Positions 11,905 to 29,398 of a DNA stretch of 44,794 nucleotides are shown in pieces. A model generated the notes under the pieces. The model was not told the origin of the DNA. It saw only the letters and a program-made list of their open reading frames with translations, and did no database searches. This DNA comes from Candidatus Peribacteraceae bacterium. Lineage in GTDB: Bacteria > Patescibacteriota > Gracilibacteria > Peribacterales > Peribacteraceae. Position 1 is the stretch's first letter, and every line of letters starts with the position of its first letter. A program made the translations under genes and the position numbers. Where the stretch lies: the NCBI GenBank assembly GCA_022843885.1, contig JALHMU010000002.1:1-44794 (forward strand), written 5' to 3'.

Positions 11905-13320
11905 TTGGCGGTAATTCCAGCTAGAAATTTCGGAAAGAGCGGAGCAGGCTTCGTCAGACTATTTGCTTCGGTCAAATTGACTGTAGCCCTGATGTCGCTT
12001 ACTGCCTTTACTGTCTTGCTTGGGGCCTGGTGCCCGCAAGAATCTCAGCAAGGCCGGGCCAAAGTGGTTGAGCAATTCGGCGAGCAAGTGTCCTCCAATC
12101 TTATCGCCTGGGGAATCGCAGACATATACCACAGCCCCTGGTTTCTCTTTTTGATAGCCATGCTGACGGTGAACATCGTCGTTGGCAGTTTCAAAAAGGT
12201 TTTTCCGAAGCTGCGCACTCTCAATGTTCCATTGCCGTTCTTGACCAATAGGCAAATAAACGAGTTGCCGGCACATTTTCAGGTCGTTCTGGTCGCTGAC
12301 AGTCGGTCCGTTCTGAGCGCTGTCAGCAAGAATCTCAAGTCCGCAGGCTATCGTGTGGAGCAGAGGAGCGATGCCCTGACTGGGGAATCCGGTAAGCTGG
12401 GTCGGCTGGCCCCAACGGTTACACATATCGGACTACTCGCACTGCTTCTTGGCGTCACAGTCACTTCATGGACCGGGTTTAGTGGGTTCCAGCCGGTCGC
12501 TCTCGGAGAAGATTTGAGTTTTACCAATTCGGAACACTCTAAACTCTGGATTGGCAAACTGCCGACCTGGCATCTGCATGTTGACGCAACAAGACGCGAG
12601 AACTATGAAAGCGGCGACGCTAAGCAGTGGTATAGCGACTTGACGGCCATTGACAACAAGGGGGCTAAGCTCAAGTCTGGCGAAATCTCGGTCAATAACC
12701 CATTCACCTGTGAGGGAGTCGATGTGTACCAATCCAGTTGGGGATTGGATCATATACTCGTCTCTTTTAATGATCGTTGGGCGCGCCTTAATCTCAGTCC
12801 GATGGGAGGTACCTATGCAGCGTTCATGGCGCTGGATGAAGCGACTGTCTTGATCTTTTCTGTCCGGAGCGCCGTTGCCCCAGTCAAGGTCTTTGCCAAA
12901 ACAGCCCATTGGCCCGAGCCACGCATTTTGACTATGCTGGTTCAGGGCAAGCCAGTGGACATTGGCTCGGTAAAGGTGGAGCTGCGCAAAGTGGTTCCGG
13001 TCACAGGGTTACAATACAAATGCGATCCCGGATTGCCCATCACCTTCTGCGCTTTTGCCTTTATCATAGCCGGCGTGCTTTTAGCGGCTGTACCTCATCA
13101 CCAGGTCTTTGTTAAGTGCACGCAACTGGGGGGCGGTTTAACAGCTCTTCAGGTGGGAGGATTCTCACGTAAAGCTAAACGCGCTTTTGAACAAATCTTA
13201 CGGCGAATCTTAGTCAAATCTTGCGCCGGATTTGATACTGCGCCAACATCTGGCGGCGACGCCGAAGGTATTGAAGTTGCTACAACCTCAGGCGGGGAAA
13301 CATGTCCGACCTCCAATTAG
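11905..13320 (+). CDS. resB: Cytochrome c biogenesis protein ResB/Ccs1 (System II)
   Basis: 471 aa. The N-terminus is FASVKLTVALMSLTAFTVLLGAW, followed by TM segments, a large soluble domain and a C-terminal TM. The gene overlaps the start of the ccsA-like gene (13302). Confidence 0.75.
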   Translation: MAVIPARNFGKSGAGFVRLFASVKLTVALMSLTAFTVLLGAWCPQESQQGRAKVVEQFGEQVSSNLIAWGIADIYHSPWFLFLIAMLTVNIVVGSFKKVFPKLRTLNVPLPFLTNRQINELPAHFQVVLVADSRSVLSAVSKNLKSAGYRVEQRSDALTGESGKLGRLAPTVTHIGLLALLLGVTVTSWTGFSGFQPVALGEDLSFTNSEHSKLWIGKLPTWHLHVDATRRENYESGDAKQWYSDLTAIDNKGAKLKSGEISVNNPFTCEGVDVYQSSWGLDHILVSFNDRWARLNLSPMGGTYAAFMALDEATVLIFSVRSAVAPVKVFAKTAHWPEPRILTMLVQGKPVDIGSVKVELRKVVPVTGLQYKCDPGLPITFCAFAFIIAGVLLAAVPHHQVFVKCTQLGGGLTALQVGGFSRKAKRAFEQILRRILVKSCAGFDTAPTSGGDAEGIEVATTSGGETCPTSN

Positions 13321-14399
13321 TTTTGACAAACACCGCCGGGATCTCTTCTGTGATGTCCTTCTGGGCCTTTGTCAGCTCCAGTGCTAGCAAAAGATGGCAG
13401 AGTTTATTGCTCAAGGTGGCTCTTGCGATCATGGTCGCTTGCTTTGCGGCGCTCACCGCAGTCATAGTGGCCCGAGGCGTTGAAGCCGGGCGCTTTCCTT
13501 TGTCCAATTTGTACGAATCCCTTCTATGGTCTGCCTGGGGGGTTATCGGAGGCTACTTGCTTTTGGGACGTACTTACGATATCAGACACCTGGGCTGGAT
13601 GGCCAGTCTTACTGCTGCCACATTTTTTCTCTACGGAAGCTGGTTGCCGGCTGGGCAACACGAGATTAAACCGTTGGTTCCGGCCCTGGTCAGTTACTGG
13701 AGGCAAATTCACGTGCCTCCTCTGATTGTCTCTTACTCCATGTTCTTCATTTCTGGGCTAGCAGCCTTTATGCACCTCTGGCAGTCGAACTGCCGACGGT
13801 CGGTTGCCTACGCAGCTCTTGCCCTGTCGGCGGCGCTTGCTGCCATCGGGCTTGGTACTTTCATGGATGTGAACGTTTTTGTGTTACAGGGACTATTTGT
13901 CGGTGGCAGCTTGATTGGGCTTGGTAGTGCATGGATCGCTTTGCCCAAGAGCGAAACTGCGGCGGAGGACGACAAAGCCAAACTCTACGACGAAGTCGGA
14001 CACCGTAGCATCATGGTTGGATTTCCACTTCTGACTATTGGTGTCATCACGGGCGGTTTGTGGGCCAATCATACCTGGGGTACCTATTGGTCCTGGGACC
14101 CCAAAGAATCAATGGCGCTGGTTACCTGGCTTGGCTACGCCACTTACATTCATTTACGTGTGCATCATGAGATGGGCGACCGTAAACTTTCTCTGGTAGC
14201 AATTGCCGGCATGCTTTTAACATTATTGACCTATCTGGGATTCAATTCTCTTGGTTTTGGTGGGCTTCATAGTTACGGAAAATTCAAAAGCGAAGTGACT
14301 TTGCCTGCCGTGTATCACCACAAATCGCTCCTGCAGTGTCTGGCCAGCGATGGAGCAATCTGTGTAGAATGCTTCTTGGTGTCAGAGGTGAGTGTTTGA
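13302..14399 (+). CDS. ccsA: Cytochrome c-type biogenesis protein CcsA/ResC (heme handling, System II)
   Basis: 365 aa and polytopic. It carries the Trp-rich heme-handling motif GGLWANHTWGTYWSWDPKESMALVTWL, with conserved His after it (YIHLRVHH) and GLHSYG near the end. Confidence 0.9.
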   Translation: MSDLQLVLTNTAGISSVMSFWAFVSSSASKRWQSLLLKVALAIMVACFAALTAVIVARGVEAGRFPLSNLYESLLWSAWGVIGGYLLLGRTYDIRHLGWMASLTAATFFLYGSWLPAGQHEIKPLVPALVSYWRQIHVPPLIVSYSMFFISGLAAFMHLWQSNCRRSVAYAALALSAALAAIGLGTFMDVNVFVLQGLFVGGSLIGLGSAWIALPKSETAAEDDKAKLYDEVGHRSIMVGFPLLTIGVITGGLWANHTWGTYWSWDPKESMALVTWLGYATYIHLRVHHEMGDRKLSLVAIAGMLLTLLTYLGFNSLGFGGLHSYGKFKSEVTLPAVYHHKSLLQCLASDGAICVECFLVSEVSV

Positions 14400-14461
14400 T
14401 AGTCCGCAAAGCTTTAAGGGATAAATAAGTAAAGAAGCAGGCGTCTGCAATTAACCGGGGG

Positions 14462-15154
14462 ATGTTAGGGATGAAGATCAAGAAAGGTATTACTCGAAAA
14501 GGAAGGTTGCTGGGACTTGGCACCATCGGCGTGCTACTGATCGGTGGTGGACTGCTGGCGAACAAGCCCGAATCAGCCGCTGCCGAGAAAGGACCTCAAG
14601 CAAAATACGATGTTGAAGTTGCTCCAAAATGGACCGATGCAGGCGAACTAATGCTTCCTGGCAACTTTCGAGAAGATTGGGTATTTATCGGGTCACCCAT
14701 TACGCCAGACGGGCTCAATGGTGGTCATGCCAATTTTCCAGAATTTCATAATGTTTACGTACAGCGAGAGGCGTTCATAAAGTACCGGAAAACCAACAAA
14801 TGGCCAGAAGGAACAATGATGCTGAAGGAGTTGCAGCGCACGAGCCCGGGGGACGGGCCCAATGGCTCAAAGACTGAACCCTCTGGAACAGGCTACTTTC
14901 CGGGTGGCCCGAACGGTGTAGACATCTCAGTGAAGGATTCGACTAAGTTTCCAAAATCCAAAAACTGGGGTTTTTTCAACTTTGGACATCATAAGCCACC
15001 ATATGCTGCATCGGCAAAAGAACAGCCTCTTGCCAAGTGTGCGGGTTGTCACATAGCGAATGCTCCTGAAGATATGGTTTACGTGGATTTCTATAAACCT
15101 ATCCTGGATCCGCTCCCCGCACCCACGAATACAGACGCAGGCAATGATAAATGA
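14462..15154 (+). CDS. Cytochrome P460 family protein (periplasmic mono-heme)
   Basis: 230 aa with a signal/anchor LLGLGTIGVLLIGGGLLA. GELMLPGNFREDWVFIGS, SGTGYFPGGPNGVDISVKDSTKF..NWGFFNF and KCAGCHIANAPEDMVYVDFYKPIL parallel the Nitrosomonas cytochrome P460 blocks (GELLLPKNYREW, GNGYF..ASVKDS..NWAFY, CAACH....DMVF.QFYPVL) as I recall them. Confidence 0.8.
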   Translation: MLGMKIKKGITRKGRLLGLGTIGVLLIGGGLLANKPESAAAEKGPQAKYDVEVAPKWTDAGELMLPGNFREDWVFIGSPITPDGLNGGHANFPEFHNVYVQREAFIKYRKTNKWPEGTMMLKELQRTSPGDGPNGSKTEPSGTGYFPGGPNGVDISVKDSTKFPKSKNWGFFNFGHHKPPYAASAKEQPLAKCAGCHIANAPEDMVYVDFYKPILDPLPAPTNTDAGNDK

Positions 15155-16086
15155 GCATAAACTGGAGAATTGCGTCGCTGGTTTGCGTTATTGCTCTGTC
15201 TGTCATGTCGATGCGGCCCGTAAAATCGCTAGACAAGACTGCTCCTATCGCCGAAAACTTAGGCGGTCTGGTGGGCGGGAAGGGGGAACTCCTCTTGCCG
15301 AGAGACTTTGCGCTGCGATGGTCTCACTTGGGTAGCGTTTTTGTGAATGATGAGTTTCACAACACATACATCAAACCAGATGATTTGGCGTATTATCGTG
15401 CCAACTCGAAGTTTAAAGATAAAACTGTCTTGGTGAAAGAAATACGCTCATCAAACTCGGGACGTCTCACGACAGGCGACGCTCATTGGGGCAGCGGCGT
15501 AAAGATCTGGTTTGTGATGATGAAAGACGAGAAGGGACGCTTCAAAGACAATCCACTGTGGGGGAATGGATGGGCTTGGGCTCTATATAAAGGGGACGCT
15601 CCAGACAAACAAGTAGCGACGGATTACAAGAAGGACTGCTTGTCCTGCCATGTGCCCGCGCAAAAGACCGATTGGGTCTACATCGACAAATACCCGGCAC
15701 TCACAGCAGAGGCACCGGTGCCTGTTGGCAACTCTTCGAAGGCGCCTGTATCTGGCAACTCTTCGGAGGCGCCAGATACAGGGCGAGGCAAGTCGCTTTT
15801 CGCTACTTCCTGCCAAGGGTGCCACAGCGACCAAAAGGGGGAAAACGGGGTTGGTCCGACCCTGTTTGGAGTCTATGAGAGAAAGTCAGGCTCGGTTGCG
15901 GGATACGATTACTCTGATGCAATGAAAGCAGCGAGTGTGGTCTGGGAGGATGTCGCTCTCAATAAACACTTGGCAAGCCCGAAGGGATTTATTCCTGGCA
16001 ATTACATGGGCGACTCTTTCCCGTCAGGAGTGGCCAGCCAATCAGATCGCAGCGCCCTAATAGACTATCTGAAAACGCTCAAATAA
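15151..16086 (+). CDS. Cytochrome P460-like domain fused to a C-terminal class I cytochrome c domain
   Basis: 311 aa with a signal peptide. The P460-like blocks are GELLLPRDFALRW, NGWAWALY and DCLSCHVPAQKTDWVYIDKYPAL. A repeat linker (GNSSKAPVS/GNSSEAPDT) follows, then CQGCHSDQKGENGVGPTLFGVYERKSG...PGNYM, which is mitochondrial/c2-type cytochrome c. The start overlaps the upstream stop (ATGA-type). Confidence 0.75.
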   Translation: MSINWRIASLVCVIALSVMSMRPVKSLDKTAPIAENLGGLVGGKGELLLPRDFALRWSHLGSVFVNDEFHNTYIKPDDLAYYRANSKFKDKTVLVKEIRSSNSGRLTTGDAHWGSGVKIWFVMMKDEKGRFKDNPLWGNGWAWALYKGDAPDKQVATDYKKDCLSCHVPAQKTDWVYIDKYPALTAEAPVPVGNSSKAPVSGNSSEAPDTGRGKSLFATSCQGCHSDQKGENGVGPTLFGVYERKSGSVAGYDYSDAMKAASVVWEDVALNKHLASPKGFIPGNYMGDSFPSGVASQSDRSALIDYLKTLK

Positions 16087-16203: not shown

Positions 16204-16479
16204 TTAGGATTTCGGCCGCTCTGGCGCTGAGACATATCGGTAAAGAGTGGACCGGGAAATTCTCAAAGCTTTGCTGACTTCGGTGACGGTTGTGGTCTTT
16301 TCCTTCAGAAGCTGTTCGAAAATCGCGATTTTATTCTCATCAAGTTTGAAAGGTCGACCACCTTTTCGTCCTCTGGCTCGCGCTGCTACAAGGCCAACAT
16401 TGGTGCGCTCTCTGATGACTTCGGCTTCGAATTGAGCGAGTGCACCAAACACATGGAAAACAAGTTTGCCGAGATTTTC
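16204..16479 (-). pseudogene. 3' fragment of a serine recombinase (resolvase/invertase); catalytic N-terminal domain missing
   Basis: ENLGKLVFHVFGALAQFEAEVIRERTNVGLVAARARGRKGGRP....TVTEVSKALRISRSTLYRYV is the E-helix plus C-terminal HTH of resolvases. Compare GKLMLNMLAAISEFENDLLRERIKSGIAHARSKG of the intact copy at 36577. An in-frame TGA lies at 16480-16482 and there is no upstream catalytic Ser region. Confidence 0.8.
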
Positions 16480-16556: not shown

Positions 16557-17759
16557 TTGAATCAAAGCCAAACACTTGATCTACCGATAAAAAAACCAGA
16601 ATCTCTTTCTGGATTGCATCATTTGATGCAAGCAATTCAGGCTTGGTGGTCGAATAAAGGTTCTGAAATATCGCTTATAGACGAAGTGCATTTTGACCAA
16701 CAGTCTGGCACTGGCAACATTAGAATCAGGCTTTCGCTAAACCTTGCGGAAAAGTGTCAGCTCCAAATTCCTGGAGATGATGATTTTCTTCGGTCCTTAA
16801 ATGATGATTGGATTGTTCGCTGCACAATCAACGGTGCCGAATCGCAGCTAGAGCAGTTGTTTTCAAGACATGTATATCGAGACAGGTACGAAATTCTCGC
16901 AAATTATTATTTCATAGACAACAAACGTGTTTATTTGCCGACATCATCACCTAGCAACTGTCGCTTCTGCAGCAGAAGCAGTCCTGATGTCACTTTTATC
17001 CATAAAGCCCATGCAGTCCCAGTGTGTCTTGGCAATAAAACTTTGTTTTCCAAGAACGAATGTGATTCTTGCAATGCATTTTTTGGCGACACCATAGAAA
17101 GTCACCTTGGCAATGTAACACTCAATTCACGAGTGTTGGGAGGGGTGCCCAATCGAAAAGGCTTGCCTTCTCATCACGGAGATGGATGGTCCTCGAAGAT
17201 AGAGAATGGCGTAATCGTCATCGAAGAAGGCAGTAAAGATTTAAATGTACGAGTTAGTGCCGACCAGAAGAAAGTGAACTTCACGGCTTCGACTCGGAGC
17301 TATATTCCTGTGGCGATTTTCAAAGCTTTTGTAAAAATGGCCATTTCACTTATGCCGGACAATGAAGTAGCGAATTTTGATAGTGCAAGAGAATGGTTAT
17401 TAGAACGAGATTATTGTGTTAGACCAACAAATACTAGTCATTTTTTTGATTGCTATCGATCTTTCTTTTCAGGGTGTACCGTTCCAGGACACGCTTTGCT
17501 ATTCAGACGAACTGTGGAAGATCGAAGCATGCCATATATGACTCTAGTAGTGGAATTTGGAAGCTTCTCTTATCAAATTGCCGTGACAGTCGGGAGCCAA
17601 TTTCAAAACCCGATGCCCGTTATGCACAGCCACAGCGCTGGATACAGAAGCAATGCTCCAATAGATATACAGATCATCGATTTGTCTAGCGCTCATGTGG
17701 TAACCACAGAAGCCGAAACCTACACACTTGAAGGGCACCGAATCTTCTCCACAGGCTAG
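16557..17759 (+). CDS. HNH_5-like (Abi-type) putative nuclease
   Basis: 400 aa with a TTG start; the true start could be internal. CRFCSRSSPDVTFIHKAHAVPVCLGNKTLFSKNECDSCNAFFGDTIESHLGN fits the HNH_5 layout (CxxC...H..P..LG.....C..CN..fG). The C-terminal ~250 aa has the same general pattern as 4459..5601. Confidence 0.5.
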   Translation: MNQSQTLDLPIKKPESLSGLHHLMQAIQAWWSNKGSEISLIDEVHFDQQSGTGNIRIRLSLNLAEKCQLQIPGDDDFLRSLNDDWIVRCTINGAESQLEQLFSRHVYRDRYEILANYYFIDNKRVYLPTSSPSNCRFCSRSSPDVTFIHKAHAVPVCLGNKTLFSKNECDSCNAFFGDTIESHLGNVTLNSRVLGGVPNRKGLPSHHGDGWSSKIENGVIVIEEGSKDLNVRVSADQKKVNFTASTRSYIPVAIFKAFVKMAISLMPDNEVANFDSAREWLLERDYCVRPTNTSHFFDCYRSFFSGCTVPGHALLFRRTVEDRSMPYMTLVVEFGSFSYQIAVTVGSQFQNPMPVMHSHSAGYRSNAPIDIQIIDLSSAHVVTTEAETYTLEGHRIFSTG

Positions 17760-18153: not shown

Positions 18154-18519
18154 CTACATTGCTATTTGCGGCTCGACAAAGTAGTAAGCTCCTTTGCCGC
18201 AATTACTGCATTCATTTGTCCAGGCAAAAGATGCTTCCTTCATTCGTGCTTGCTCGTCACCTTCGGTCGGCGCACAGTCAAGACAGTAAAACTTAGAATT
18301 GGCCAAGTGAGTGCCGAAATACTTCGCGAGCATCGTCAACGCCGTTTCCATTTCAGTTTTTGCACTGGCGGCAATATTTGTGATTGCGGCTTCACCTAGG
18401 GCATCTTTGGTTTCCTGATGCAACCGGAGAGTGTCCTTGCACTTAAATGCATGAGTGATCAAGGCCCGCGAAACAAGGTCCAGTTCTTGCTTATCAGTAA
18501 TTTTCAATTCGAGCATCAC
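18154..18519 (-). CDS. Small C4 zinc-ribbon protein, copy 1 (paralogue of 26502..26858)
   Basis: 121 aa. It is collinear with, and roughly 60% identical by eye to, the 118-aa ORF at 26502. It has two Cys pairs, CLDC and CSNC, in FYCLDCAP.EG....EC..CG.GAYYFVEP. It is the last gene of the toxin/immunity operon. Confidence 0.65.
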   Translation of the reverse strand: MMLELKITDKQELDLVSRALITHAFKCKDTLRLHQETKDALGEAAITNIAASAKTEMETALTMLAKYFGTHLANSKFYCLDCAPTEGDEQARMKEASFAWTNECSNCGKGAYYFVEPQIAM

Positions 18520-18540
18520 TCGTATCCTTTGACTACAACC

Positions 18541-19011
18541 CTATTGTAGCTTGTCTTGCGACTCGATCTGGGCTGCTAGTAAATAGTCTAAAGTCTCAGA
18601 AAAGTGGTCATCTTTTCTTATCGGCTCCTTGGTATTATCCCGATAAAGAAAAACAGGTGGGTCATCACCATCAGTGGTGTCAAAGAAAAGGAAATAACCA
18701 CTTTCGCTAAGCCAAAAAACAAAAGCTGTAGACGGTAGCCTGTAGTCGGTGTCGGCATGGTCTAACAAGTCTTGGGCGCCTTGCGTGAGCGTCAAAAGCT
18801 CTGGGTAAAGACGATCGTCATCACGGCAAAAGCCAGCCATACCACGACCCATTTTCAATAAAAACGAGCGATAGATCGGAGGTAGTTTGACCTGAAGTTT
18901 GGCTTCAATTTCTGCTACTTCCGCTTCTGAACAACCAACAAGAGGAGCGCCACTAGCAAGGTTACTGGCAACGACTCGTTTTGAAAAGTTTTCGATGAAT
19001 TGGTTAGTCAT
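18541..19011 (-). CDS. SMI1/KNR4 (SUKH-1) family immunity protein
   Basis: 156 aa. CSEAEVAEIEAKLQVKLPPIYRSFLLKMGRG is the SMI1_KNR4 signature. The start abuts the stop of the toxin gene (19011/19012). Confidence 0.8.
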   Translation of the reverse strand: MTNQFIENFSKRVVASNLASGAPLVGCSEAEVAEIEAKLQVKLPPIYRSFLLKMGRGMAGFCRDDDRLYPELLTLTQGAQDLLDHADTDYRLPSTAFVFWLSESGYFLFFDTTDGDDPPVFLYRDNTKEPIRKDDHFSETLDYLLAAQIESQDKLQ

Positions 19012-20700
19012 TTAATTCCTTTTAGCAAGTCCGAATTCAACGATAAGGGTAATTCTACCCTTAAAAGCCTCGCGAAATTGCTCAATAACACCTTCACAAG
19101 AATCGCACGGTTGGCGCTCTGTATAGAGCTTTATCGTACCCTTTGTTGATTCAGTAATTTTTTCGGCGATGCTTTCCAAAATTTTCTTTTCCGAATGTTC
19201 GACATTCTTCATGAAGCCTCTTGGCTTAGCATCGAACCTGGGGTTTGCCGGCATTGCGACAGTGCCTTCCGGTGAAACCTCCCCGCTAACGCCTACAAGC
19301 GTTCCTTCTTGTCCAGCGATGTCTACATCGGCATAGGCGATGTTTCTATCATTGGCGACGCCATGCTTGACTCTGAGTTCGTCGACTCTATCAAGGCCGT
19401 CTAAGTTTTTGATGAAGTCGTGGGGCTTCTCCTTCATCATGAGAATGTTGTCGTTGGCCGGTCTCAGCTGTTCGACATAACGTGAAGGCACGCCAGCGTA
19501 TTGCAGTTCTTTAGGAGAGATCCCAAGACCTTGCATATAATCCCGCACTATTTGGCGGCTCTGAGCGGCAAGCTCAGGCGTGACCTGGGCTATATTGTCG
19601 GCCGCTTGCATTGCTTTGGTAATACCGTCAACGACCGTTTTATCAACATGCGTAGCCAATCGGTCGGCGGCTTTTAGAGCCAAGTTGCCAGCTTCGGTAC
19701 TCCCTTCTGGATTGAAAAAGAAGAACATAGCTTTGCCGTCCTGGACACCTCTATCATGGGCCGACATTTTGCTGTACTTGTCACTTGCGACCTCAAGTTC
19801 ACGTCCCAAAACGAGCAGCACATTATTAACGGCATTAGGATCACGCTTCATCACGTCCAGACAGGTGCCGATTGTTTTAAAAAGAGGCTCATTTATTGCG
19901 TTTGGAGTTGCCATAAATTTAGCTACGCTATCATCGCAGACCGCAGTCCAGGCCTTTGCGGCTGCCTTCCTCAAGGCATCTTTGGCTTCGTCTTTTGCAA
20001 TACTCAGCCCTTCACCTACACCTGATATTTCATCAAGCATGCCCTGAAAGTATGCCTGCCGTTCTTTTGGTTCGAGCAATCGAGCTTGTGCAGACTTCGC
20101 AAAATCGGCGAGCTTTTGACTTAGGGGAACTTGCATATCGTTGTAGTCCAGACCGGTTCTAAGGAGCCTGTGTGTGGAATCCACAGGCTTAAGAGTGATT
20201 TTGTCATGGTCTGTGTCTGGTAAAGCCGCATTCGGCACCGCAAGTGGTTGCTTGGATTTAGTGTCAGCAAATTGACCACTGTTATAGGTTTTATCGGCGA
20301 GCTGCTGCACTCCATCACATTCAGAACTAACTTGCATCTCAGTCGCACATCCAAAGTCTTCTACGAGGGCCCTAGGCTCTTTATCTGCCATGACCAAGGG
20401 GTCTCGGACACCGATAATGCGTTCGGCCGGCTCGCATGCGCCAAGATCGCCTTCACTGAGCCGACTTTGCCTCGATGCGATGCGGCCGCCGACACCCATA
20501 ATTTGGATGCTTTCTTCTTGCTCGGCGATGAACTTGGCTCGGTCTCGCAGCGAACCATCGCTAGCGTTAGTTCTCAGTCCTTCCGTCACAGCGATACTTT
20601 GCCCATTGGCGTTTCGGGCATGCTGGACTTCCGCTGACTCGAGCTTTGGCTGCTCGGGCGCGACTTGCTTATCCGGAGCGTCGTTGCCGTCTTTAGACAT
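19012..20700 (-). CDS. Polymorphic-toxin-like protein with C-terminal nucleic-acid deaminase domain (HxE...PCxxC)
   Basis: 562 aa. The C-terminus is NVEHSEKKILESIAEKITESTKGTIKLYTERQPCDSCEGVIEQFREAF, with HSE and PCDSC spaced 29 residues apart as in CDA-fold toxin deaminases. A SUKH gene lies immediately downstream. The N-terminal ~440 aa has no signal peptide or recognisable trafficking domain. Confidence 0.7.
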   Translation of the reverse strand: MSKDGNDAPDKQVAPEQPKLESAEVQHARNANGQSIAVTEGLRTNASDGSLRDRAKFIAEQEESIQIMGVGGRIASRQSRLSEGDLGACEPAERIIGVRDPLVMADKEPRALVEDFGCATEMQVSSECDGVQQLADKTYNSGQFADTKSKQPLAVPNAALPDTDHDKITLKPVDSTHRLLRTGLDYNDMQVPLSQKLADFAKSAQARLLEPKERQAYFQGMLDEISGVGEGLSIAKDEAKDALRKAAAKAWTAVCDDSVAKFMATPNAINEPLFKTIGTCLDVMKRDPNAVNNVLLVLGRELEVASDKYSKMSAHDRGVQDGKAMFFFFNPEGSTEAGNLALKAADRLATHVDKTVVDGITKAMQAADNIAQVTPELAAQSRQIVRDYMQGLGISPKELQYAGVPSRYVEQLRPANDNILMMKEKPHDFIKNLDGLDRVDELRVKHGVANDRNIAYADVDIAGQEGTLVGVSGEVSPEGTVAMPANPRFDAKPRGFMKNVEHSEKKILESIAEKITESTKGTIKLYTERQPCDSCEGVIEQFREAFKGRITLIVEFGLAKRN

Positions 20701-21157
20701 CGCTAAACCCTTGCTCGGTAGTTTTCAATATACCCACGGACAAGAGAAAGGCCCACCTCACAATTGCCCAAGCTAACTTTCGACTAATTCGACCATTGCA
20801 ACTAGATGATCCATTGTGATCAGCCGTGGAAAGGAGAATCAGTATGACCAGTAAAGTCATGCTATTTAACTCTGAAACTTACAAATACCGACCGATGTTC
20901 CTCGCGCCGTGTAGTCGCCTCACTGCAACTACCTCGTGTACAGCCAGACGGACCTAAAGGGGCAATAGGTCGCTCATAGTCATCGACTTAAACGGGCATC
21001 AGGTAAAAATAGCTGACGTTGCTGGAGATTTGCAGGAGTGGAGAAGCGCTGAGTCTCCACACGCTGCTTCCTCAGCTGATCTACTTACAATTAAAGCCAT
21101 TCGCTGACAGAGTTTCCCAATTTACAGCGAAGGTCAGCGACACATCCAAAGTCATTT

Positions 21158-21721
21158 CTATTTTGTCGATAAAGCCGCTTTCCTTAAAGAGCGAGCATCA
21201 GAGGCATCCATTCCTAGCTCCACGCCAAGTCTAAAAAATTCCGTTGCGGCCGTATGAGTGTCCAAATTAAAGCGTCGCACACACGTCCGAGCAAATGTAC
21301 AATACTCGTTGAGCAACATCCCAGATGTCCCTCTGTCCTCTTTCAAAATTTGATAGAGTCCTGATATAGCGGCCTCGGGCAGCTTCGGTCCATTAATAAA
21401 ATAATTTAGAAACTTCACAAAATTACCATGACGAACAATGCCGCGTTCATCATGTCCCTTCGCTTCAAAAGTCTCCTTTATCGAGCAATTGCCTTTCTCA
21501 GCGTACTCAGGATCGCAAAAAACACGCAATCTGGCTTCTGGAATAGCCTTTCGCTTTTGCAATGAGACCATCAAGGCCTCCATAGAATCACCTCTGACAG
21601 TATTCTCCGCTGGCGACTGCGTAATTTCCTTGATGTTTTTGAACAATCGTGCTTCTTTTTCTGTCAACTCTATCGGACAGGGTGGTGTACTCGGCAATCC
21701 GCATAATGTTTGGCGTGTCAT
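21158..21721 (-). CDS. Hypothetical protein upstream of the toxin gene
   Basis: 187-aa ORF on the same strand as the toxin operon, with a 457-bp gap to the toxin start. I recognise no motif. Confidence 0.45.
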   Translation of the reverse strand: MTRQTLCGLPSTPPCPIELTEKEARLFKNIKEITQSPAENTVRGDSMEALMVSLQKRKAIPEARLRVFCDPEYAEKGNCSIKETFEAKGHDERGIVRHGNFVKFLNYFINGPKLPEAAISGLYQILKEDRGTSGMLLNEYCTFARTCVRRFNLDTHTAATEFFRLGVELGMDASDARSLRKAALSTK

Positions 21722-21850
21722 GTATTAAACTCCATGAGATTGAGCCACTGCCCAATAGAGACTTGGACAGGACACGTGAAATCTGTAGCACTAAATGTGA
21801 TATCACTCTAGAGCAAGATATTTTCAAAATATTTCAATGAGCGAGTTGTG

Positions 21851-22274
21851 TCAACCACTTTCTTTAGCTCCAGTTGTAGTGTCACCAGGAATGCGCCTCA
21901 AGTATATCCAAAAGCAATACAGCCAGGGGAGCTGTAAATTATTTCCACACAGGTGAGTAGGAGTCTTAACAGTGACGAATTTCTGGACGGAGGTAACGTC
22001 GAAATAGTCCCACCACTCGACAATCTTGTCGACTTCGAGTTCGATGATACCCATGATCATCACGCGTCCGATTTCGCTGCCATCGGCGCGCTCGAACCAG
22101 GTCGAGTCTTTCAGTGAGAACGCGATTGCCGCAGACGGAAATCGCGAGTATGTCTATATGGACCGTAGACATGTCCATCGATTTTTTCAACAAGTCGAAC
22201 ATGGCGATGGCACAGCGGTGGTGCAGAGACGGGACAATGGGCGACCAGCGCGGCAGCCAACCAACCAATTTCAC
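21851..22274 (-). pseudogene. Frameshifted SnoaL/limonene-1,2-epoxide-hydrolase-like gene
   Basis: Two overlapping minus-strand ORFs are involved. One frame gives ...CGNRVLTERLD. The other gives FERADGSEIGRVMIMGIIELEVDKIVEWWDYFD, the LEH-type C-terminal GKI..WRDYFD block. The frame switch lies around 22070-22095. Confidence 0.5.
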
Positions 22275-22396
22275 AAAGTGGGAAATTGCTTAAGGTGCGA
22301 ATATTTCATGGCAAAAGAATGGAAAATATCAAAAATTACTCTGCCAGAATCAATCAAATTGAAAACCTGGCCTAATCGACGGAAGCCCCCAAAAGT

Positions 22397-22960
22397 ATGA
22401 CAACTTCAAGCAAAACAGTGCGCTGGGCAAATTTGAACAATCAGGAAAAGGTCAAACAGTTTAGTGAGCGGGGGCATGGGCGAGTTGCCAGAAATGAAAT
22501 GCGCTCTACTTGCGAAATTTGTGACCAGGCAATAAATGGTGGTGACAACTATTTCGATATTAACGGTGCCAAGTTTGCCCACAGAGCTTGCATTGTCACA
22601 ACTCCGAGCAACTTGGCCAAGCACGGAAAAATAGTTACTCACAAAATGATGGAAGCTTTGTCATCGAAGAAAAGCAAATCATCTGTCGGCATAAAAAATT
22701 CAGCACAAACAAAGAAACCAAAGGCGGCAGCGTTAAGGATTGCATCCAAAACGGAAACAAGAGCGACACTCTCGGAACAGAAGCCATCAAAACGTGGACG
22801 AAAACCAAAGGTTCAAACCAAGACATCAACAGAATCAGCGTCAGCGCCTGCAATTAAAGTGAGTGAAGTTAGAGAAGCCCTGCCTGGCGCGATAGTCACT
22901 CTAACCATTACGGGAACTGTCGAAGCAGTACAGAGGGCACTAGACAAACTTCAAAACTAA
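22397..22960 (+). CDS. Hypothetical protein with Cys/His N-domain and Lys-rich, AT-hook-like (KRGRKPK) tail
   Basis: 187 aa. It contains CEICDQ...FAHRAC, then KKSKSS...KKPKAAALR...SKRGRKPKVQTK. A hairpin follows (ccctcttttgct...agcaaaagaggg, about 22990-23035). Confidence 0.5.
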   Translation: MTTSSKTVRWANLNNQEKVKQFSERGHGRVARNEMRSTCEICDQAINGGDNYFDINGAKFAHRACIVTTPSNLAKHGKIVTHKMMEALSSKKSKSSVGIKNSAQTKKPKAAALRIASKTETRATLSEQKPSKRGRKPKVQTKTSTESASAPAIKVSEVREALPGAIVTLTITGTVEAVQRALDKLQN

Positions 22961-23078
22961 CCGCGATCACGATTTTTCAATGCAATCTCCCTCTTTTGCT
23001 TGAGCACTTGAAAGTCATGCATGAGCAAAAGAGGGAATAAGGAGCTAGAACAAATCTGACCCTTATTGGAAAACGCAG

Positions 23079-23828
23079 ATGAGCGAACCAGAAATATCAA
23101 TAATCACACCAGTGAAAGGTACTCATCAATCTCCACTACACCTGCAAAAGCAGCAAGCGATCCAAGCTTCATTAGGCAAACCTATCCTCAAATACCGAGA
23201 TCCACTTATTGGAAGGTTTGTTCTCGGCAATGAAGAAACACACACACATGCTCAATTTGCTGTCGAAAACGGCAAAACGGATGATCTCGAATTCGCAGGT
23301 CACTCAGCGAAACTAGTAGCAATCCATTTTCATAGCCCTAGCGAGCATTGGATTGACGGTAAGAGATTTGAAACCGAGTTTCACTTTGTACACAACATTG
23401 TTGACTACCCAAACGCTGCAACCACACTTGTGGAGCCATCATCGAAATTGGTTATTGGTATTTTCGCCACAGCGAAGAACTCCTTAGCTCCTTGTGAAGG
23501 TAACGATTCCACCAAACCACGTGCATTTGCTACACGCTTGAACCAATTCCTAAAGGCTCAAAAAGAAGGAAAGACAGATGATGAATGTGGGGAGCTTGAC
23601 CTTCCGGAGAACTTACCGCAGCAAGTGATGGACGCCTGCCATGAATTCTTCTATTACCGTGGTTCCCTCACTAGCTTTGCCTACGATGAAACCGTCACGT
23701 GGCTTGTGCCAACCTCTGTAATCGAAACAGAGAAATCATTTCTCAAGGCAGTCCAAGACACTAAGCAGGCGACAAGATCTATTCAATTGTTGAACCGACG
23801 AATAATTCTCTTGTCAAAAGAGGAGTAG
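23079..23828 (+). CDS. Alpha-class carbonic anhydrase-like protein without signal peptide
   Basis: 249 aa. It has HQSPLHL (QSPI-type), IHFHSPSEHWIDGKRFETEFHFVHN (the three Zn His of the alpha-CA HFH...H.VH pattern) and YYRGSLTSFAYDETVTWLV (GSLTTPP..E.V.W). Confidence 0.7.
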   Translation: MSEPEISIITPVKGTHQSPLHLQKQQAIQASLGKPILKYRDPLIGRFVLGNEETHTHAQFAVENGKTDDLEFAGHSAKLVAIHFHSPSEHWIDGKRFETEFHFVHNIVDYPNAATTLVEPSSKLVIGIFATAKNSLAPCEGNDSTKPRAFATRLNQFLKAQKEGKTDDECGELDLPENLPQQVMDACHEFFYYRGSLTSFAYDETVTWLVPTSVIETEKSFLKAVQDTKQATRSIQLLNRRIILLSKEE

Positions 23829-23910
23829 CCCTTGGATCGATTGGTAATTACTGCAAACGAAAACGCCACGACGTAGAACTGAAGAACATTGCCACTTCAA
23901 GAGACGATTC

Positions 23911-25539
23911 CTATGCCGTATCAACCTCGCCTAGATAAAGTTGAACGGGCTTACCTTCAGAAAGAATCTTCTCTTTCAACAAAGAAATCTTCGAAGAAAG
24001 CCAAACCCAATCTCTCCGAGTAGGAGCTGTGAGCAATTCTTCGGCTAACAAATTGATCTGAACCAGCAGAGCACCCTCAGTGGTCCTAGAACCGCTGTAG
24101 CGAAGGGCAACCTCAACTCTACCCCGCCAGTTGTCAGAAGACGGCTTTACGAACGTCAGAGGAGAAGTCTTATTTGAACTCGAAAGAGAAGAACTCAATA
24201 ACGACAATTCTGATGAATCACGCTGAACCGACTTGTCAAAGGTTCGAGAAAAAACAAATCCAGCTCGAACAACATCCTCAGGCAAACAACCCGAACAATT
24301 TTCAAACTTCACAGCGTTATAAACGTGTAAAGCAGTTTCCAAGCACCCGCTGCGAAGGTCTTCCATAGCTTGTTTCCACAGTTCCGGATATTTAGCGATC
24401 GTTCGCGAGCTGACGCCGCTCTTGAGCGAGAGGTCCCTGGTGCTGAATTGCATGTCTGCTTCGCGGAAGTCTTCAACAGCGGCAGCAATTTTCCTCTGTG
24501 CTAAAGAAGCTCGGTTGGCGTTGTTTCTAATCCAAGAAATAGGGACAACTGGTTCATGCTTTCGCCACTCAGTTCCGCGCCGATGTGGTGGCACCCAATT
24601 AGTGGCGCGTCCAATATGATTAAAAGCGTCTCCGCGTCCGGCCGCAATGTCTTTACTTTGACCGTTGTGCTTGTTCTTGATTAGTGAGTCGATGAGGCAT
24701 TGTCGCTCATCTTCAAAGCCATAACCCATGGCAGGGACTTGGTGGCCGGAATCGCCATAGAACAGATAATGCGAAAGGGCAAAAATAGCGTCCGCTCTTT
24801 GGGAAGGACCGGTCAGTCCCTGGATATAATACTCTCGCCCTTTGACCCACGTGTCCGCTTTTATCCCGCGCGGAATTTTACGAAATGCCTTTTTTACTAT
24901 TTGGAGAGCCTCTTCTGATCCTTCTCCATCTACATTTTTTCGAATCGAAATAACGTCCGCTAGTCTCGCACCGACTTTTTCTTCGCCCGAACTCTGAGCT
25001 TTGGAGGAAGCTAGGTTTTCGACAAACGCACGTAGCTTGTGGAAGTGCGCATATGGATTGGCCGAGCATTCGATATCTTTTGCGAATACCAGAAGTGCTT
25101 CGGTAGGACTCAGTTCATCACGTTCTTCGCGCACAATTTGGTTGTGGTGATTTAGCCAGGCAAATCCCGGCTGTAGTGGCAAGCGAAGTCCTTGCCCAAC
25201 GGAATTGCGTCCTTCTCCTGGATTCGGGAAAATCTCGAGAGTTCCTTTGGCCACTTCGAATTCGTTCAAGGTAAGCAAGTTATGGAACTGCCGATACAGG
25301 TCGCGAGTGCTCACTGGAGCATCGAAGAAGATGTAGATATGCCAGCCGCCTGAGTGCGACGAACGGTACAAGTTGAAGCCTTCGATGCCCGCTTGTTCTA
25401 AAAGGGTCGCTATTTTTGAGAATCCTTCTTCGTTGTGATATTTGCTGCCGGCATCAATATCGAGCACTACGAATTTGCTGACCTTGCCGCACCTTGCTCC
25501 AATGAAATACTTTGGATGGACGCAAGCAGCAGCTTTCAA
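23911..25539 (-). CDS. AEP/prim-pol-like replicase-type protein with C-terminal HTH (paralogue B); true 5' end probably upstream of 25539
   Basis: 542 aa from a TTG. The motifs are VVLDIDAG (DxD), SHSGGWHIYIFF (sGxH) and GLRLPLQPGFAWLN. The C-terminal HTH is FSTRDLSLKSGVSSRTIAKY. Homology to paralogue C continues in frame upstream to about 25650, and the frame stays open to a TAA at 25792-25794. Confidence 0.6.
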   Translation of the reverse strand: MKAAACVHPKYFIGARCGKVSKFVVLDIDAGSKYHNEEGFSKIATLLEQAGIEGFNLYRSSHSGGWHIYIFFDAPVSTRDLYRQFHNLLTLNEFEVAKGTLEIFPNPGEGRNSVGQGLRLPLQPGFAWLNHHNQIVREERDELSPTEALLVFAKDIECSANPYAHFHKLRAFVENLASSKAQSSGEEKVGARLADVISIRKNVDGEGSEEALQIVKKAFRKIPRGIKADTWVKGREYYIQGLTGPSQRADAIFALSHYLFYGDSGHQVPAMGYGFEDERQCLIDSLIKNKHNGQSKDIAAGRGDAFNHIGRATNWVPPHRRGTEWRKHEPVVPISWIRNNANRASLAQRKIAAAVEDFREADMQFSTRDLSLKSGVSSRTIAKYPELWKQAMEDLRSGCLETALHVYNAVKFENCSGCLPEDVVRAGFVFSRTFDKSVQRDSSELSLLSSSLSSSNKTSPLTFVKPSSDNWRGRVEVALRYSGSRTTEGALLVQINLLAEELLTAPTRRDWVWLSSKISLLKEKILSEGKPVQLYLGEVDTA

Positions 25540-25870
25540 AATCTCGGTGTCAGTTAGCGCCCAGTCGTCGTTAGCGGACAGCCAGCCACCGCCTTCTAGC
25601 GGGCGATATATAAAAGCATATCGATGGAATAGACCAACGAATTCTACTATCGCCTCGCTTGCACGAGACGAATAATATTTTGCGCGTGAAAATCTAACTG
25701 GCTGGCCATCAGTGGCCGCCAGCGCTGTTAATCCGGTCGTAAGCGTTCCTCTTTCTAATGAAGGACGAGTTGACCTAACCGGATCAGTGCTTTATGCTTG
25801 CTTTATTCCAGGCAGTCGTCAAACACCTGAATAAAACCGCATAACTGATCCGTTAAGTGATCTCTTCAAA

Positions 25871-25897
25871 CACCGCCTGCAAGCGGTGTTTTTTGTT
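25871..25897 (+). terminator. Hairpin + T-run (caccgc ctgcaa gcggtg ttttttg), conserved with 34803-34830
   Basis: Read directly. It sits in the leader region upstream of the paralogue B gene. An ~18-nt identical core, caagcggtgttttttgtt, is shared with the paralogue C leader. Confidence 0.55.
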
Positions 25898-26036
25898 ATC
25901 CGTTTTTTTTGAGCCCTCCTATTTTTTGGCCTTGAATGGCCAGTAGCATGTGTAAACCCTTTAGCTGACTTTCAAAGTCACTTCTTTCTTAAGCGAGCTC
26001 AGGTACTTGGTTAGCCACTGCCCATGGGGCAGCAAC

Positions 26037-26081
26037 CAGAAAAAGTCCCAAGGCAAAGCCTTGGGGGAGCCTTACGGCTCC
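26037..26081 (-). terminator. Double hairpin + T-run terminator of the 26072..26290 gene
   Basis: On the minus strand, ggagcc-gtaa-ggctcc (with the stop codon in the loop) is followed by cccaagg-ctttg-ccttggg and then acttttt. Confidence 0.6.
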
Positions 26082-26290
26082 CAGGCTCCCGAGTCTCGCA
26101 TTTGGTCGCAATAGACTTCGTACATGTCGCGCTCTGCCATGTCTTTGATGAACTGAGAGCGCATTGCATCAACTTTGTTGGCACTTGCTGTATCTGCAAA
26201 ACGTGCGCCCATGCCTCGCGAGATTGAGATCACCGTGTTTGCTGGCACATTTACGTCGAACAAAACTGAAAGCATTGCGTGATATCTCAT
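26072..26290 (-). CDS. Small hypothetical protein (72 aa)
   Basis: The ORF ends in a strong terminator structure and is the last gene of the minus-strand block. I recognise no motif. Confidence 0.45.
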   Translation of the reverse strand: MRYHAMLSVLFDVNVPANTVISISRGMGARFADTASANKVDAMRSQFIKDMAERDMYEVYCDQMRDSGAWEP

Positions 26291-26501
26291 TGTCTAATCC
26301 TCTTTGGTCCGGCGCCTTCACCGGCTTCTTAGGGAATACCGCCAAAAATTTTGCTGTCAGGACTGGCGCAGCCACCCGCTAGGGCTTGGTCTTGATAGCA
26401 AAAATTTTGGTGGTACCTTCAAGAAAGCCGGGGAGGTGCTTCGACAATCTAGTGCAGTCCGGCAACGCCGGACGGAGCGGTGTAGGCGATGTTCAAGGGC
26501 T

Positions 26502-26858
26502 CTATAACTTCGGTTCTACGAAGTAGTAAGCGCCATTGCCGCATTTAGAACACTCGCTCCATCTTGCAAATTCGGCTTCGGTCATGCGGTCGTGTTCGGC
26601 GCCCTCGCTAGGTGCGCAGTCGAGGCAGTAAAATTTTGAATTGCTCAAATGGACGCCAAAGTATTTGGCGATCATCGTCAAAGCTTCGTGCATCTCGTTC
26701 TTTGCTTTCTCAGCAGTCATAGTAATCGCGTTTTCTTTTAGCGCGTCTTTCGTTTCGTTATGCAAATTGATGATGCCCTTGCATTTGAAGACGTGGCTAA
26801 TGAGCGCACTTAGCACTAACAAGCGTTCGTTATCGTCAGTAATTTTTAAGTCCGGCAT
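26502..26858 (-). CDS. Small C4 zinc-ribbon protein, copy 2 (paralogue of 18154..18519)
   Basis: 118 aa, collinear with the 18154 copy. The start overlaps the NADAR stop by 1 nt (TGATG at 26858), implying translational coupling. Confidence 0.7.
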   Translation of the reverse strand: MPDLKITDDNERLLVLSALISHVFKCKGIINLHNETKDALKENAITMTAEKAKNEMHEALTMIAKYFGVHLSNSKFYCLDCAPSEGAEHDRMTEAEFARWSECSKCGNGAYYFVEPKL

Positions 26859-27442
26859 CAGGCTATCACCTCCAATAAATCACGTACTTCCATAAGGGCG
26901 AATCCCAGCAGATTCCTGCCTTTCCATAGCCTTGGGTCGCGGGCGCCAGGCGCACTAGCCACCATGCCGATGCCCCATATTTTGTCCCACATACTCGCTT
27001 CAACGAGAATTTTTGGCGTGGTAGCGGCAAGAAAGTCAATCATTTTCGGGTGCGCCGAAAACTTAGCCAGGTTTGCTTTTACGACAATTTGAAAACAATG
27101 GTTTTGCCATTTTTCGCCGTCAAAATTCTGCACTTTTCGACCAAAAGCTTTTGCCTCTTTCGGTGTTTTGCATTCCAGAATATTTTTTAGCATCACCGCA
27201 TCGTCAAACAGACGCGCCTTTTCAGCCATCATGAAATGCTCAGCGGTCAAGTATTTAGTACCATCAATCTCAAACTCGGCAGAAAACCACTGACTAAGGC
27301 AAGCAGCGGTGATACTACCGTCGGTGCTCGACTTGTGACCGTAGAACAAGAGGTAATCAACCTCCTGCCCGTGTTCTAGTTGCTCGATCAGTTTTTCTCT
27401 TGAATATTTCAACGCGGTTCCATAAATTACGGTGCTGTCCAC
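26858..27442 (-). CDS. NADAR (YbiA/DUF1768) family protein
   Basis: 194 aa. YLLFYGHK...LSQWFSAEFEIDGTKYLTAEHFMMAEKARLFDD...PKEAKAFGRKVQNFDGEKW...KANLAKFSAHP...LVEAS.WDKIWGIG follows the NADAR/YbiA consensus throughout. Confidence 0.8.
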   Translation of the reverse strand: MDSTVIYGTALKYSREKLIEQLEHGQEVDYLLFYGHKSSTDGSITAACLSQWFSAEFEIDGTKYLTAEHFMMAEKARLFDDAVMLKNILECKTPKEAKAFGRKVQNFDGEKWQNHCFQIVVKANLAKFSAHPKMIDFLAATTPKILVEASMWDKIWGIGMVASAPGARDPRLWKGRNLLGFALMEVRDLLEVIA

Positions 27443-27849
27443 GGATCGATAACAGGCACGCCAAGGGCTTGAAACGGCGCCACATCGCGCGTAGCGACAC
27501 TGAAATTATGCACGCTGGCGATAGCGCCAATTTGTCCATCAGGCATCGAGACGGCTTTACCTTGGGCGCGCGCGGCGCTCAGTAACTGGCTGTAAGCCAT
27601 GGCAGCAGCATGATCGAATGGCAGGATTCTTGTATCGAACAAGCGAGAAATGAGCAAATCGAGGGCTGCACTGATTGTAGATTTCCGCTTGCCATCAGGC
27701 ATTACAGCGATACCGATCAGAAGTTCTGCCAGGCTGGTGGACGCAAGATACAGCGTCTCGGCTGATTGCTGGTCAAGCCAGGCGATAACTGCCGGGTCTC
27801 TGCCTGGCTTGAGCGCTTCGGACACCACATTTGTATCGAGAACAATCAT
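27427..27849 (-). CDS. vapC: PIN-domain toxin VapC/FitB-like
   Basis: 140 aa. It begins MIVLDTNVVSE, has acidic residues spaced as in PIN domains, and overlaps the upstream antitoxin by 4 nt. Confidence 0.85.
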   Translation of the reverse strand: MIVLDTNVVSEALKPGRDPAVIAWLDQQSAETLYLASTSLAELLIGIAVMPDGKRKSTISAALDLLISRLFDTRILPFDHAAAMAYSQLLSAARAQGKAVSMPDGQIGAIASVHNFSVATRDVAPFQALGVPVIDPWTAP

Positions 27850-28085: not shown

Positions 28086-28229
28086 GATTTCACCTCTTAA
28101 ATATCGATTGCACTGCAAGCAATGATATCACATTTCTAATAATGACAGCAAGGCGAAACATGGCGCCGGTTTGTTTCTTCGCCTAAGGCATGGCGGGGCA
28201 CCTGAGTTGGCACCCCGCTATGCCTGCCT

Positions 28230-29372: not shown

Positions 29373-29398
29373 TGGACGAGGATTAGGATAAGGAATTA

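Follow-up and report, generated by a model that had tools for sequence, protein, structure and literature searches.

Several described toxins carry a C-terminal zinc cytosine deaminase tip and are followed by a cognate immunity gene. DddA/DddI, SsdA/SsdAI and DddB are polymorphic toxins of this kind, representing the SCP1.201 (BaDTF1), DYW-like (BaDTF2) and Pput_2613-like (BaDTF3) groups, respectively, and are toxic and mutagenic via C-to-U conversion. Members of a further clade, BURPS668_1122, corresponding to the Pfam family PF14424 (Toxin-deaminase), occur as toxin tips with SUKH, Imm2 or Imm3 immunity, are often truncated past helix 3 and carry the sequence RxxDxExK in helix 2 as clade signature (Iyer 2011, PMC3239186). 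In a base-editor reporter built on Cas9, PF14424 members are reported to have deaminated cytidine in single-stranded DNA (ssDNA), seen as C-to-T editing (bioRxiv 10.1101/2023.05.21.541555). The present analysis concerns a toxin gene of this clade, and the putative immunity gene next to it, located between positions 18154 and 20700 of a 44,794-nucleotide stretch, a complete contig hereafter called the window, from an assembly labelled Candidatus Peribacteraceae bacterium (GCA_022843885.1, contig JALHMU010000002.1).

The locus is read as a two-gene polymorphic toxin-immunity cassette, carried as cargo by a mobile element, in which a C-terminal deaminase toxin is paired with a SUKH antidote; a probability of about 0.7 is assigned to this reading. 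The pairing of PF14424 with SUKH has been known since 2011, and the two genes of the window are new members of known families. The clade members found at CdiA/FhaB tips in Ralstonia, Klebsiella and Pseudomonas, as well as in Bacillus mycoides, similarly have their immunity gene directly downstream. The window toxin differs from them in carrying His instead of Asp at a metal-ligand position and Asn instead of Arg, and in having the deaminase mounted on a scaffold of ~430 amino acids (aa), composed of a leader and a helical module, rather than on domains of the type V, VI or VII secretion systems (T5SS, T6SS, T7SS). DddA, SsdA and DddB belong to different clades and are delivered via T6SS or as parts of very large proteins, whereas the window toxin has no such domain. 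The front-end scaffold is previously undescribed, conserved and family-specific, and probably directs delivery.

The deaminase domain and its putative immunity partner

An earlier note, made from the bare sequence, had placed three open reading frames (ORFs) on the minus strand between 18154 and 20700, and they were found exactly there (Table 1). The junction of the first two reads AAT TAA ATG, the toxin stop directly abutting the SUKH-1 start, as had also been noted. The third ORF, coding for a Zn-ribbon protein, begins 21 nucleotides beyond the SUKH gene, and an AAAGGA ribosome-binding site precedes its ATG. The ratio of nonsynonymous to synonymous polymorphism (pN/pS) was evaluated by comparison with L008, where the region recurs at 96% identity, resulting in 0.31 for the toxin, 0.09 for the SUKH gene and 0.05 for the Zn-ribbon gene. 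Within the toxin, the highest value was obtained for the linker (0.53), followed by the helical module (0.35), the leader (0.25) and the deaminase (0.16). Given these low values, all three genes are real and constrained, with purifying selection acting on every toxin module.

The toxin C-terminus matches PF14424 with 53.2 bits, against a cut-off of 29.6. The match is confined to profile positions 88-136 of 146, and a close relative (P0044) aligns positions 11-136, with 57.6 bits. Sub-threshold echoes were obtained from the XOO_2897, NAD1, SNAD4, MafB19, dCMP_cyt_deam_1 and APOBEC models; in the same Pfam scan, the SCP1.201/DddA model (PF14428) gave no match at E<0.1, and the DYW and Pput_2613 models were likewise unmatched. 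The earlier note had suggested the DddA/SCP1.201-, MafB19- or YwqJ-like clades, and had regarded the clade as not tellable from sequence. Neither statement holds: on its profile score, the domain is assignable to the BURPS668_1122/PF14424 clade.

The structure of the protein was predicted by using AlphaFold2 with a 43-sequence family alignment. Residues 434-556 show a predicted local distance difference test (pLDDT) score of ~85, with the topology H434-446, E454-461, E464-471, H503-514, E521-527, H533-545, E550-556, where H denotes helices and E strands. Helix 2 bears HSE and helix 3 bears PCDSC; a ~30-residue insert, or loop, is found at 472-502, separating strand 2 from helix 2, while strand 4 is the last element, the domain ending 6 residues past it. 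The HxE...PCxxC signature had been correctly read in the earlier note, including the offset of 29. The deaminase had been assigned there to the last ~110 aa; it is indeed C-terminal, but the domain measures ~125-130 aa, and its motifs fall within the last ~65.

The model was compared with known structures by using Foldseek. The 50 best PDB matches are without exception structures of APOBEC3, APOBEC2 or AID, with a probability of ~1.0, although with weak E-values, since the full 562-residue model had served as query. The AID/APOBEC ssDNA cytidine deaminases are therefore the nearest solved folds to the window domain, at 11-16% identity; APOBECs have five strands and extra helices, whereas the window domain counts ~125 aa and ends past strand 4. 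Taken together, the PF14424 score above cut-off, the confident model and the fold matches restricted to the APOBEC group indicate that the toxin C-terminus is a zinc deaminase with the cytidine deaminase fold, as had been proposed, and that the signature is not a chance match.

A tblastn search of annotated plasmids found the same domain, with 33-41% identity over residues ~453-548, in two settings: CdiA/FhaB proteins of Ralstonia and Klebsiella have it as their C-terminal tip, and it occurs in a Bacillus mycoides protein annotated as 'deaminase domain-containing protein', behind which an Imm3 gene lies. A phmmer search of the domain against PDB sequences produced noise only, and a profile built from 9 deaminase sequences only marginal APOBEC3 matches, aligning the H-x-E...PCxxC core; no solved structure for any member of the BURPS668_1122 clade was found by these sequence and profile searches. 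The homologue search started from the 137-aa deaminase domain returned nothing, missing even a 93%-identical relative (P0001), which likely reflects a word-index limit on short queries.

Both motifs are kept in all deaminase-bearing relatives aligned, and an alignment of nine of them gives the signatures [R]-x-x-[D/H]-[S/T]-E-x-K-I-L and E-x-x-x-C-x-S-C. The zinc is predicted to be bound by H502, C532 and C535, with E504 as the predicted proton shuttle; all four are intact in the window toxin. Some features weigh against the main reading. Helix 2 reads N-x-x-H-x-E-x-K, thus departing from the canonical RxxDxExK: the E and the K are kept, while D is changed to H and R to N. The domain lacks strand 5, and deaminase activity, toxicity and neutralisation are, at this stage, predictions from sequence and modelling. 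Among the relatives, the exact RxxDxExK is present in P0048, in P0210 and in the Klebsiella and Bacillus proteins, and RxxHxExK in P0002 and P0044.

A degenerate, catalytically dead remnant, with four strands and a non-canonical helix 2, in a decaying gene, would account for the stop past strand 4 and for the Asn replacing the conserved Arg of the clade. This explanation is considered highly improbable: the four predicted zinc and catalytic residues are all in place, the deaminase has the lowest pN/pS among the toxin modules, members of the clade normally stop past helix 3 or strand 4 (Iyer 2011), and an intact, tightly coupled immunity gene has been kept at an even lower pN/pS.

As to the substrate, ssDNA cytosine is the most likely one. 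A genuine deaminase acting lethally on something else, such as double-stranded DNA (dsDNA), RNA/tRNA or free nucleotides, would agree with the differences in substrate observed among toxin clades with similar cores (dsDNA for DddA and DddB, ssDNA for SsdA) and with the His found where the clade usually bears Asp. No in vitro substrate or solved structure is defined for the clade in the literature and PDB entries searched, where the base-editor report was the only functional information retrieved for PF14424. That very report, in which the edited substrate was ssDNA, and the nature of the nearest folds and marginal profile matches, all ssDNA-acting APOBEC3 enzymes, make a different substrate rather unlikely.

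The 156-aa product of the second gene matches PF09346 with 54.4 bits, against a cut-off of 25.4, over profile positions 1-124 of 125. Its identification as a SUKH-1 (SMI1/KNR4) immunity protein, encoded directly 3' of the toxin, is solid by this profile match, in agreement with the earlier note. SUKH genes are also found behind deaminase-bearing relatives, with 45% identity at L007 and 33% at L005/L006, as well as at L008.

The N-terminal scaffold and the toxin family

A homologue search with the full-length toxin identified 49 proteins, most of which share residues ~1-420 or ~160-422 and differ in their C-termini. A profile search of 1.84 billion representative proteins extended the family to 278 clusters at E<=1e-3, 111 of them at E<=1e-30. 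In a scan of species-representative genomes, 16 loci were found, 12 of which in metagenome-assembled genomes (MAGs) of Obscuribacterales, Melainabacteria or Cyanobacteriota. The other 4 are assigned to Bryobacterales (two loci in one MAG), Chthonomonadales (one MAG) and 'Rhodoferax' (one MAG), and may represent horizontal transfer or mis-binning. On these counts, the family appears to be small and taxon-restricted, mostly to Obscuribacterales (Melainabacteria) MAGs.

About 135 members were scanned for known domains. The toxin tips recognised by Pfam include an EC869-like nuclease of contact-dependent inhibition (CDI) systems, Toxin-deaminase, C39-like and C70 peptidases, DUF6932, RelA_SpoT and DUF6883, and many other tips have no Pfam assignment. 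When loci were compared in pairs, all pairs with similar immunity genes (13/13) also had similar toxin tips, and no pair was similar in the immunity gene only. The downstream immunity genes, as judged by their similarity, change with the toxin tip, and it is by this behaviour that polymorphic toxin systems are defined. Because of the N-terminal region shared by close (~45) and distant (278) relatives, of the variable tips and of the co-varying downstream genes, the classification as polymorphic toxin put forward in the earlier note is retained.

Two family members may occur in the same neighbourhood. They are close together at L018 (6601-8166 and 9590-11287), and ~20 kb apart on the same 706-kb Bryobacterales contig (L014/L023); such pairs are consistent with toxin arsenals or with arrays of displaced tips. 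In a 743-aa protein (P0141), an N-terminal region like the TOTE type of archaeo-eukaryotic primases (AEPs), resembling the product of window 23911-25539, precedes the helical toxin module at residues 540-731; this is either a real fusion or a chimera produced by assembly or gene calling.

The shared region is composed of three parts: a leader, a linker and a middle module. The leader has a mean hydropathy of -0.79, contains 1 aromatic residue in 90 and is modelled with pLDDT 33-55. It features three motifs, with consensus RTN[A/Q]S[D/S]GSL at residue 43, [Q][E/G][E/D]S[I/V]x[I] at residue 61 and ASR[K/Q]xxL[T/S]E at residue 75, the first being present in 29/49 homologues and the second in 28/49. 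The linker differs in length and sequence among family members. The N-terminus had been described as a hydrophilic, probably disordered segment of ~60 aa. It is indeed hydrophilic, and for most of residues 1-190 the pLDDT stays below 50, but the leader is longer (~90 aa), contains conserved motifs and is followed, past the linker, by a helical module.

The helices of this module, called type A, span residues 193-401 in the AlphaFold2 model. Its consensus reads ...PNAINEPLF...DPNAVN...NPEGSTE, and ten columns are invariant in 45 sequences (numbered as in the full-length protein: A268, N270, P272, D287, Y309, G318, G322, F326, N330 and G333). Residues 1-432 match nothing in Pfam, NCBIfam, PHROG or PADLOC, either in the query or in the family, and no relative of the helical module was found among PDB sequences by using the family profile. 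The module is modelled with pLDDT of only 54-77, which counts against the main reading, and the stand-alone AlphaFold2 model has a mean of 54. Foldseek analysis of this stand-alone model gave meaningless coiled-coil matches only, at E>2, and no fold was assigned. The highest hydropathy of a 19-residue segment in the window toxin is 0.67, with no signal peptide or transmembrane segment.

In eight proteins (P0044, P0048, P0049, P0153, P0177, P0190, P0196 and P0207), the same leader precedes a different middle module, called type B, which is unrelated to type A, mutually related among its carriers and matches no Pfam family; their tips are either the deaminase or the EC869-like nuclease. P0044, P0048 and P0049 all have the first leader motif, and P0049 has all three. 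The presence of the same leader in front of type A and type B modules implies that two toxin scaffolds at least have it in common as their functional unit. Conversely, in about 20 proteins the type A module follows hydrophilic N-termini of unrelated sequence. By the combinations observed, the leader, the middle module and the toxin recombine independently. We propose that the first ~420 residues are the trafficking part of the protein, with the type A module serving for trafficking, receptor binding or translocation.

A Sec signal was found in only 2/186 members. One of them (P0210) joins a Sec signal peptide to part of the helical module and to the same deaminase, an arrangement that suggests that the helical module works outside the cytoplasm.

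Candidate delivery routes

The absence of a recognisable delivery domain, reported in the earlier note, was confirmed by checking trafficking profiles: no library gave a match, either in the query or in the ~135 members scanned. Specifically, no PAAR, VgrG, Hcp, RHS, LXG, WXG, MIX, TPS or MuF domain is present in these proteins, and no Pfam match was obtained for the TPS and FHA repeats of CdiA-type T5SS proteins with a pre-toxin VENN/PT domain. Searches of the window protein for LXG, MIX, DPY and TolB-box motifs were negative. The neighbourhoods of 24 loci were analyzed, with flanks of up to 10 kb. Immunity genes are the only recurrent neighbours; no secretion apparatus, adaptor or lysis gene was recognised, and none of the vgrG, hcp, PAAR, adaptor, sheath, tube or baseplate genes was found. 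A scan for promoters and terminators was uninformative on release or SOS regulation, and literature searches on secretion systems or polymorphic toxins of Obscuribacter/Melainabacteria gave nothing useful.

Three other candidates were dropped. Phage-borne or phage-lysis-linked delivery is no longer a leading idea, as no family member was found by scanning 2.9 million viral contigs or by tblastn of 50,697 phage records. A double-glycine leader for a C39 ABC-transporter was discarded: the GG pattern is lacking in the window protein and is not conserved in the family, and the proteins are far too large. The upstream 187-aa ORF (21158-21721), considered as an adaptor or chaperone, occurs only in near-identical copies of the element and is missing at L007.

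Nuclease bacteriocins consist of a disordered N-terminal translocation region (T), a helical receptor domain (R) and a C-terminal toxin (C), and are co-expressed with an immunity protein; those surveyed were mapped only in gamma-proteobacteria, namely Enterobacteriaceae and Pseudomonadaceae (PMC5536347). The window toxin resembles colicins and S-type pyocins in organisation, not by homology, sharing the T-R-C order, the linked immunity gene and the lack of a signal peptide. The route that we prefer, although speculatively and at less than even odds, is that of a released, diffusible, colicin/pyocin-like toxin. It is favoured by analogy, because of the disordered N-terminus with its short conserved epitopes, helical centre and toxin tip, the linked immunity gene, the stand-alone cassettes, frequently borne by mobile elements, the shuffling of modules and the occasional members with a Sec signal. 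On the main reading, the co-translated SUKH-1 protein would bind and block the deaminase domain in the producer, as inferred from its family; along the preferred route, the toxin-immunity complex would be released. The helical module might then bind a surface receptor of the target, and the disordered leader might engage the import machinery of the target through the motif (D/E)-S-I-x-I, which is similar to a TonB box. On the main reading, the C-terminal deaminase would convert C to U in the nucleic acid of the recipient, killing or mutagenising the cell, again judging from the family. A deaminase warhead is not known among the classical bacteriocin toxin types.

Several observations count against the colicin-like route. 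There is no sequence or fold homology to the T and R domains of colicins and pyocins (PF03515 Cloacin, PF06958 Pyocin_S), and neither a DPY motif nor a lysis gene was recognised. The TonB-box-like sequence occurs once in the window protein, at the conserved leader motif, but ~0.4 occurrences are expected by chance at this protein length.

Alternatively, the toxin might be a cargo effector of a T6SS, of an extracellular contractile injection system (eCIS) or of another machine encoded elsewhere, with the leader as signal for loading or packaging and with the helical module either binding an adaptor or being chaperoned. A hydrophilic, low-confidence leader common to different middle modules and toxins fits a shared loading tag, the window toxin has no signal peptide, and orphan T6SS effector-immunity pairs are common. 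Other phyla deliver toxins of this deaminase clade through T5SS, T6SS or T7SS (Iyer 2011). Contractile-system genes, however, are missing from the 24 neighbourhoods described above, there is no MIX-type motif and no T6SS or eCIS marker domain was detected in the ~135 members, two of the family members carrying a Sec signal instead. The cargo of an eCIS is, in addition, normally encoded beside the particle operon. On balance, delivery as cargo is regarded as unlikely.

It is also conceivable that the toxin is never exported, and that the cassette works as an intracellular toxin-antitoxin, abortive-infection or addiction module stabilising the mobile element, with the N-terminus as sensor or regulator. 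Its position inside such an element, near PIN, RadC, SSB, NADAR and AEP-primase genes, and the lack of any export signal or linked apparatus would suit this role. A long conserved N-terminus, swapped tips (the EC869 CDI nuclease, an AvrRpt2-like C70 peptidase, RelA_SpoT) and a SUKH partner are hallmarks of exported polymorphic toxins, however; none of the defence models of PADLOC matches, ordinary chromosomal regions harbour family members too, and two members bear Sec signals. An intracellular function is thus judged improbable.

More generally, the leader (RTNxSxGSL ... (D/E)SIxI ... ASRxxxLTE) and the swappable helical modules might constitute a new delivery pathway in non-photosynthetic Cyanobacteria (Obscuribacterales), either as an independently evolved colicin-like class or as a new export or loading signal; we regard this as possible, but doubtful. 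If true, the colicin-like class would be contact-independent, and would carry deaminase, nuclease, peptidase and (p)ppApp-type warheads.

The apparent mobile element and implications

Table 1. Positions, in the window, of the toxin cassette, of the parts of the toxin and of other genes of the element.
Feature	Position	Strand	Remarks
Polymorphic toxin gene	19012..20700	-	562 aa; composed of leader, linker, helical module and deaminase
N-terminal hydrophilic leader, residues 1-90	20431..20700	-	low pLDDT and conserved motifs
Leader motif RTNASDGSL	20548-20574	-	coordinates verified
Leader motif QEESIQI	20500-20520	-	coordinates verified
Leader motif ASRQSRLSE	20452-20478	-	coordinates verified
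Variable linker, residues 91-190	20131..20430	-	low-confidence or disordered; pLDDT 30-47
All-alpha module, type A, residues ~191-420	19441..20130	-	conserved; matches no known family
Zinc deaminase toxin domain, residues 434-562	19012..19401	-	PF14424, BURPS668_1122 clade
HSE, residues 502-504	19189-19197	-	predicted H502 and E504
PCDSC, residues 531-535	19096-19110	-	predicted C532 and C535
SUKH-1 (SMI1/KNR4) immunity gene	18541..19011	-	156 aa; PF09346; start abuts toxin stop
Zn-ribbon gene	18154..18519	-	121 aa from GTG, or 120 aa from ATG at 18516
AEP primase-like gene	23911-25539		weak TOTE-AEP match
Eukaryotic-type alpha-carbonic anhydrase	23079-23828		unusual element cargo

The cassette lies within an apparent mobile element, which extends over window ~16200-37200, from a truncated resolvase fragment (16204-16452) to an intact resolvase (36577-37194). 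The element also carries an HNH_5 gene, a Zn-ribbon paralogue, and NADAR, ribbon-helix-helix (RHH)/PIN, RadC, SSB and GP88 genes. Two further public contigs (L027 and L028) match window 20502-32858 with 99.99% identity, and the RadC protein of the window clusters, at >=90% identity, with Candidatus Melainabacteria proteins. The bearer of the element is taken to be a member of the Obscuribacterales (Melainabacteria).

The Zn-ribbon gene had been listed in the earlier note as an extra gene of the toxin locus. It is a real, conserved gene, but it belongs to the backbone of the mobile element, outside the toxin system. Its homologues form 24 clusters at 61-86% identity, all 118-133 aa and mostly 118-122 aa long, in which the CxxC...CxxC cysteines (C78, C81, C103 and C106) are conserved in at least 96% of the clusters; H22, C26, H33 and H70 are also conserved in the family, and no Pfam family matches this Cys/His-rich protein. 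A role as third component of the toxin system was rejected on three grounds. A 62%-identical toxin-SUKH cassette (L007) has no Zn-ribbon gene behind; a 66%-identical paralogue is found in the window itself, at 26502-26858 (-); and relatives in other contigs are located directly after SSB-RadC-(RHH/PIN)-NADAR, or beside HigB and helix-turn-helix genes, with no adjacent toxin gene. From these contexts, it appears to be a duplicated backbone gene of the element, and its family looks like an undescribed 'leading-region' or establishment gene of mobile elements. One source labels a homologue as 'ribosomal protein S26', probably by mis-annotation.

Two proteins with an HNH_5 endonuclease domain are encoded in the window, at 4459-5601 (-, 380 aa) and at 16557-17759 (+, 400 aa). 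The latter matches phrog_26663 (E=1e-29), flanks the toxin cassette and is conserved in L008. At 39904-41070 (+), a 388-aa signal-anchored protein has a small number of RHS repeats and, past a motif of the DPSGL type, a short C-terminal tip rich in Cys. This protein could be an orphan or miniature RHS toxin; nothing recognisable as its immunity gene was identified, and it gives no clue to the delivery route of the toxin described here. Window 11905-16086 (+) contains a ResB/CcsA cytochrome c maturation pair and, behind it, two cytochrome P460 genes in tandem, of which the second also encodes a fused c-type cytochrome domain. Cytochromes P460 are usually discussed for N-oxide or hydroxylamine chemistry, and such an arrangement is notable in a Melainabacteria setting.

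In the cassette, warhead and antidote are ordinary for interbacterial toxins, and the front end is what is new: a putative delivery scaffold found in ~280 clusters, for which Pfam, NCBIfam, PHROGs, PADLOC and the PDB gave no match. The deaminase itself, a His variant of ~125 aa ending past strand 4, from a clade with reported ssDNA editing, is a reasonable candidate for screening as a small base editor, with the SUKH protein as a ready-made putative inhibitor. Solving the routes of exit and entry would add either a class of bacteriocins outside Proteobacteria or a new secretion signal. Little studied and uncultured, the Obscuribacterales are common inhabitants of wastewater and soil, and the scaffold could inform how they compete.

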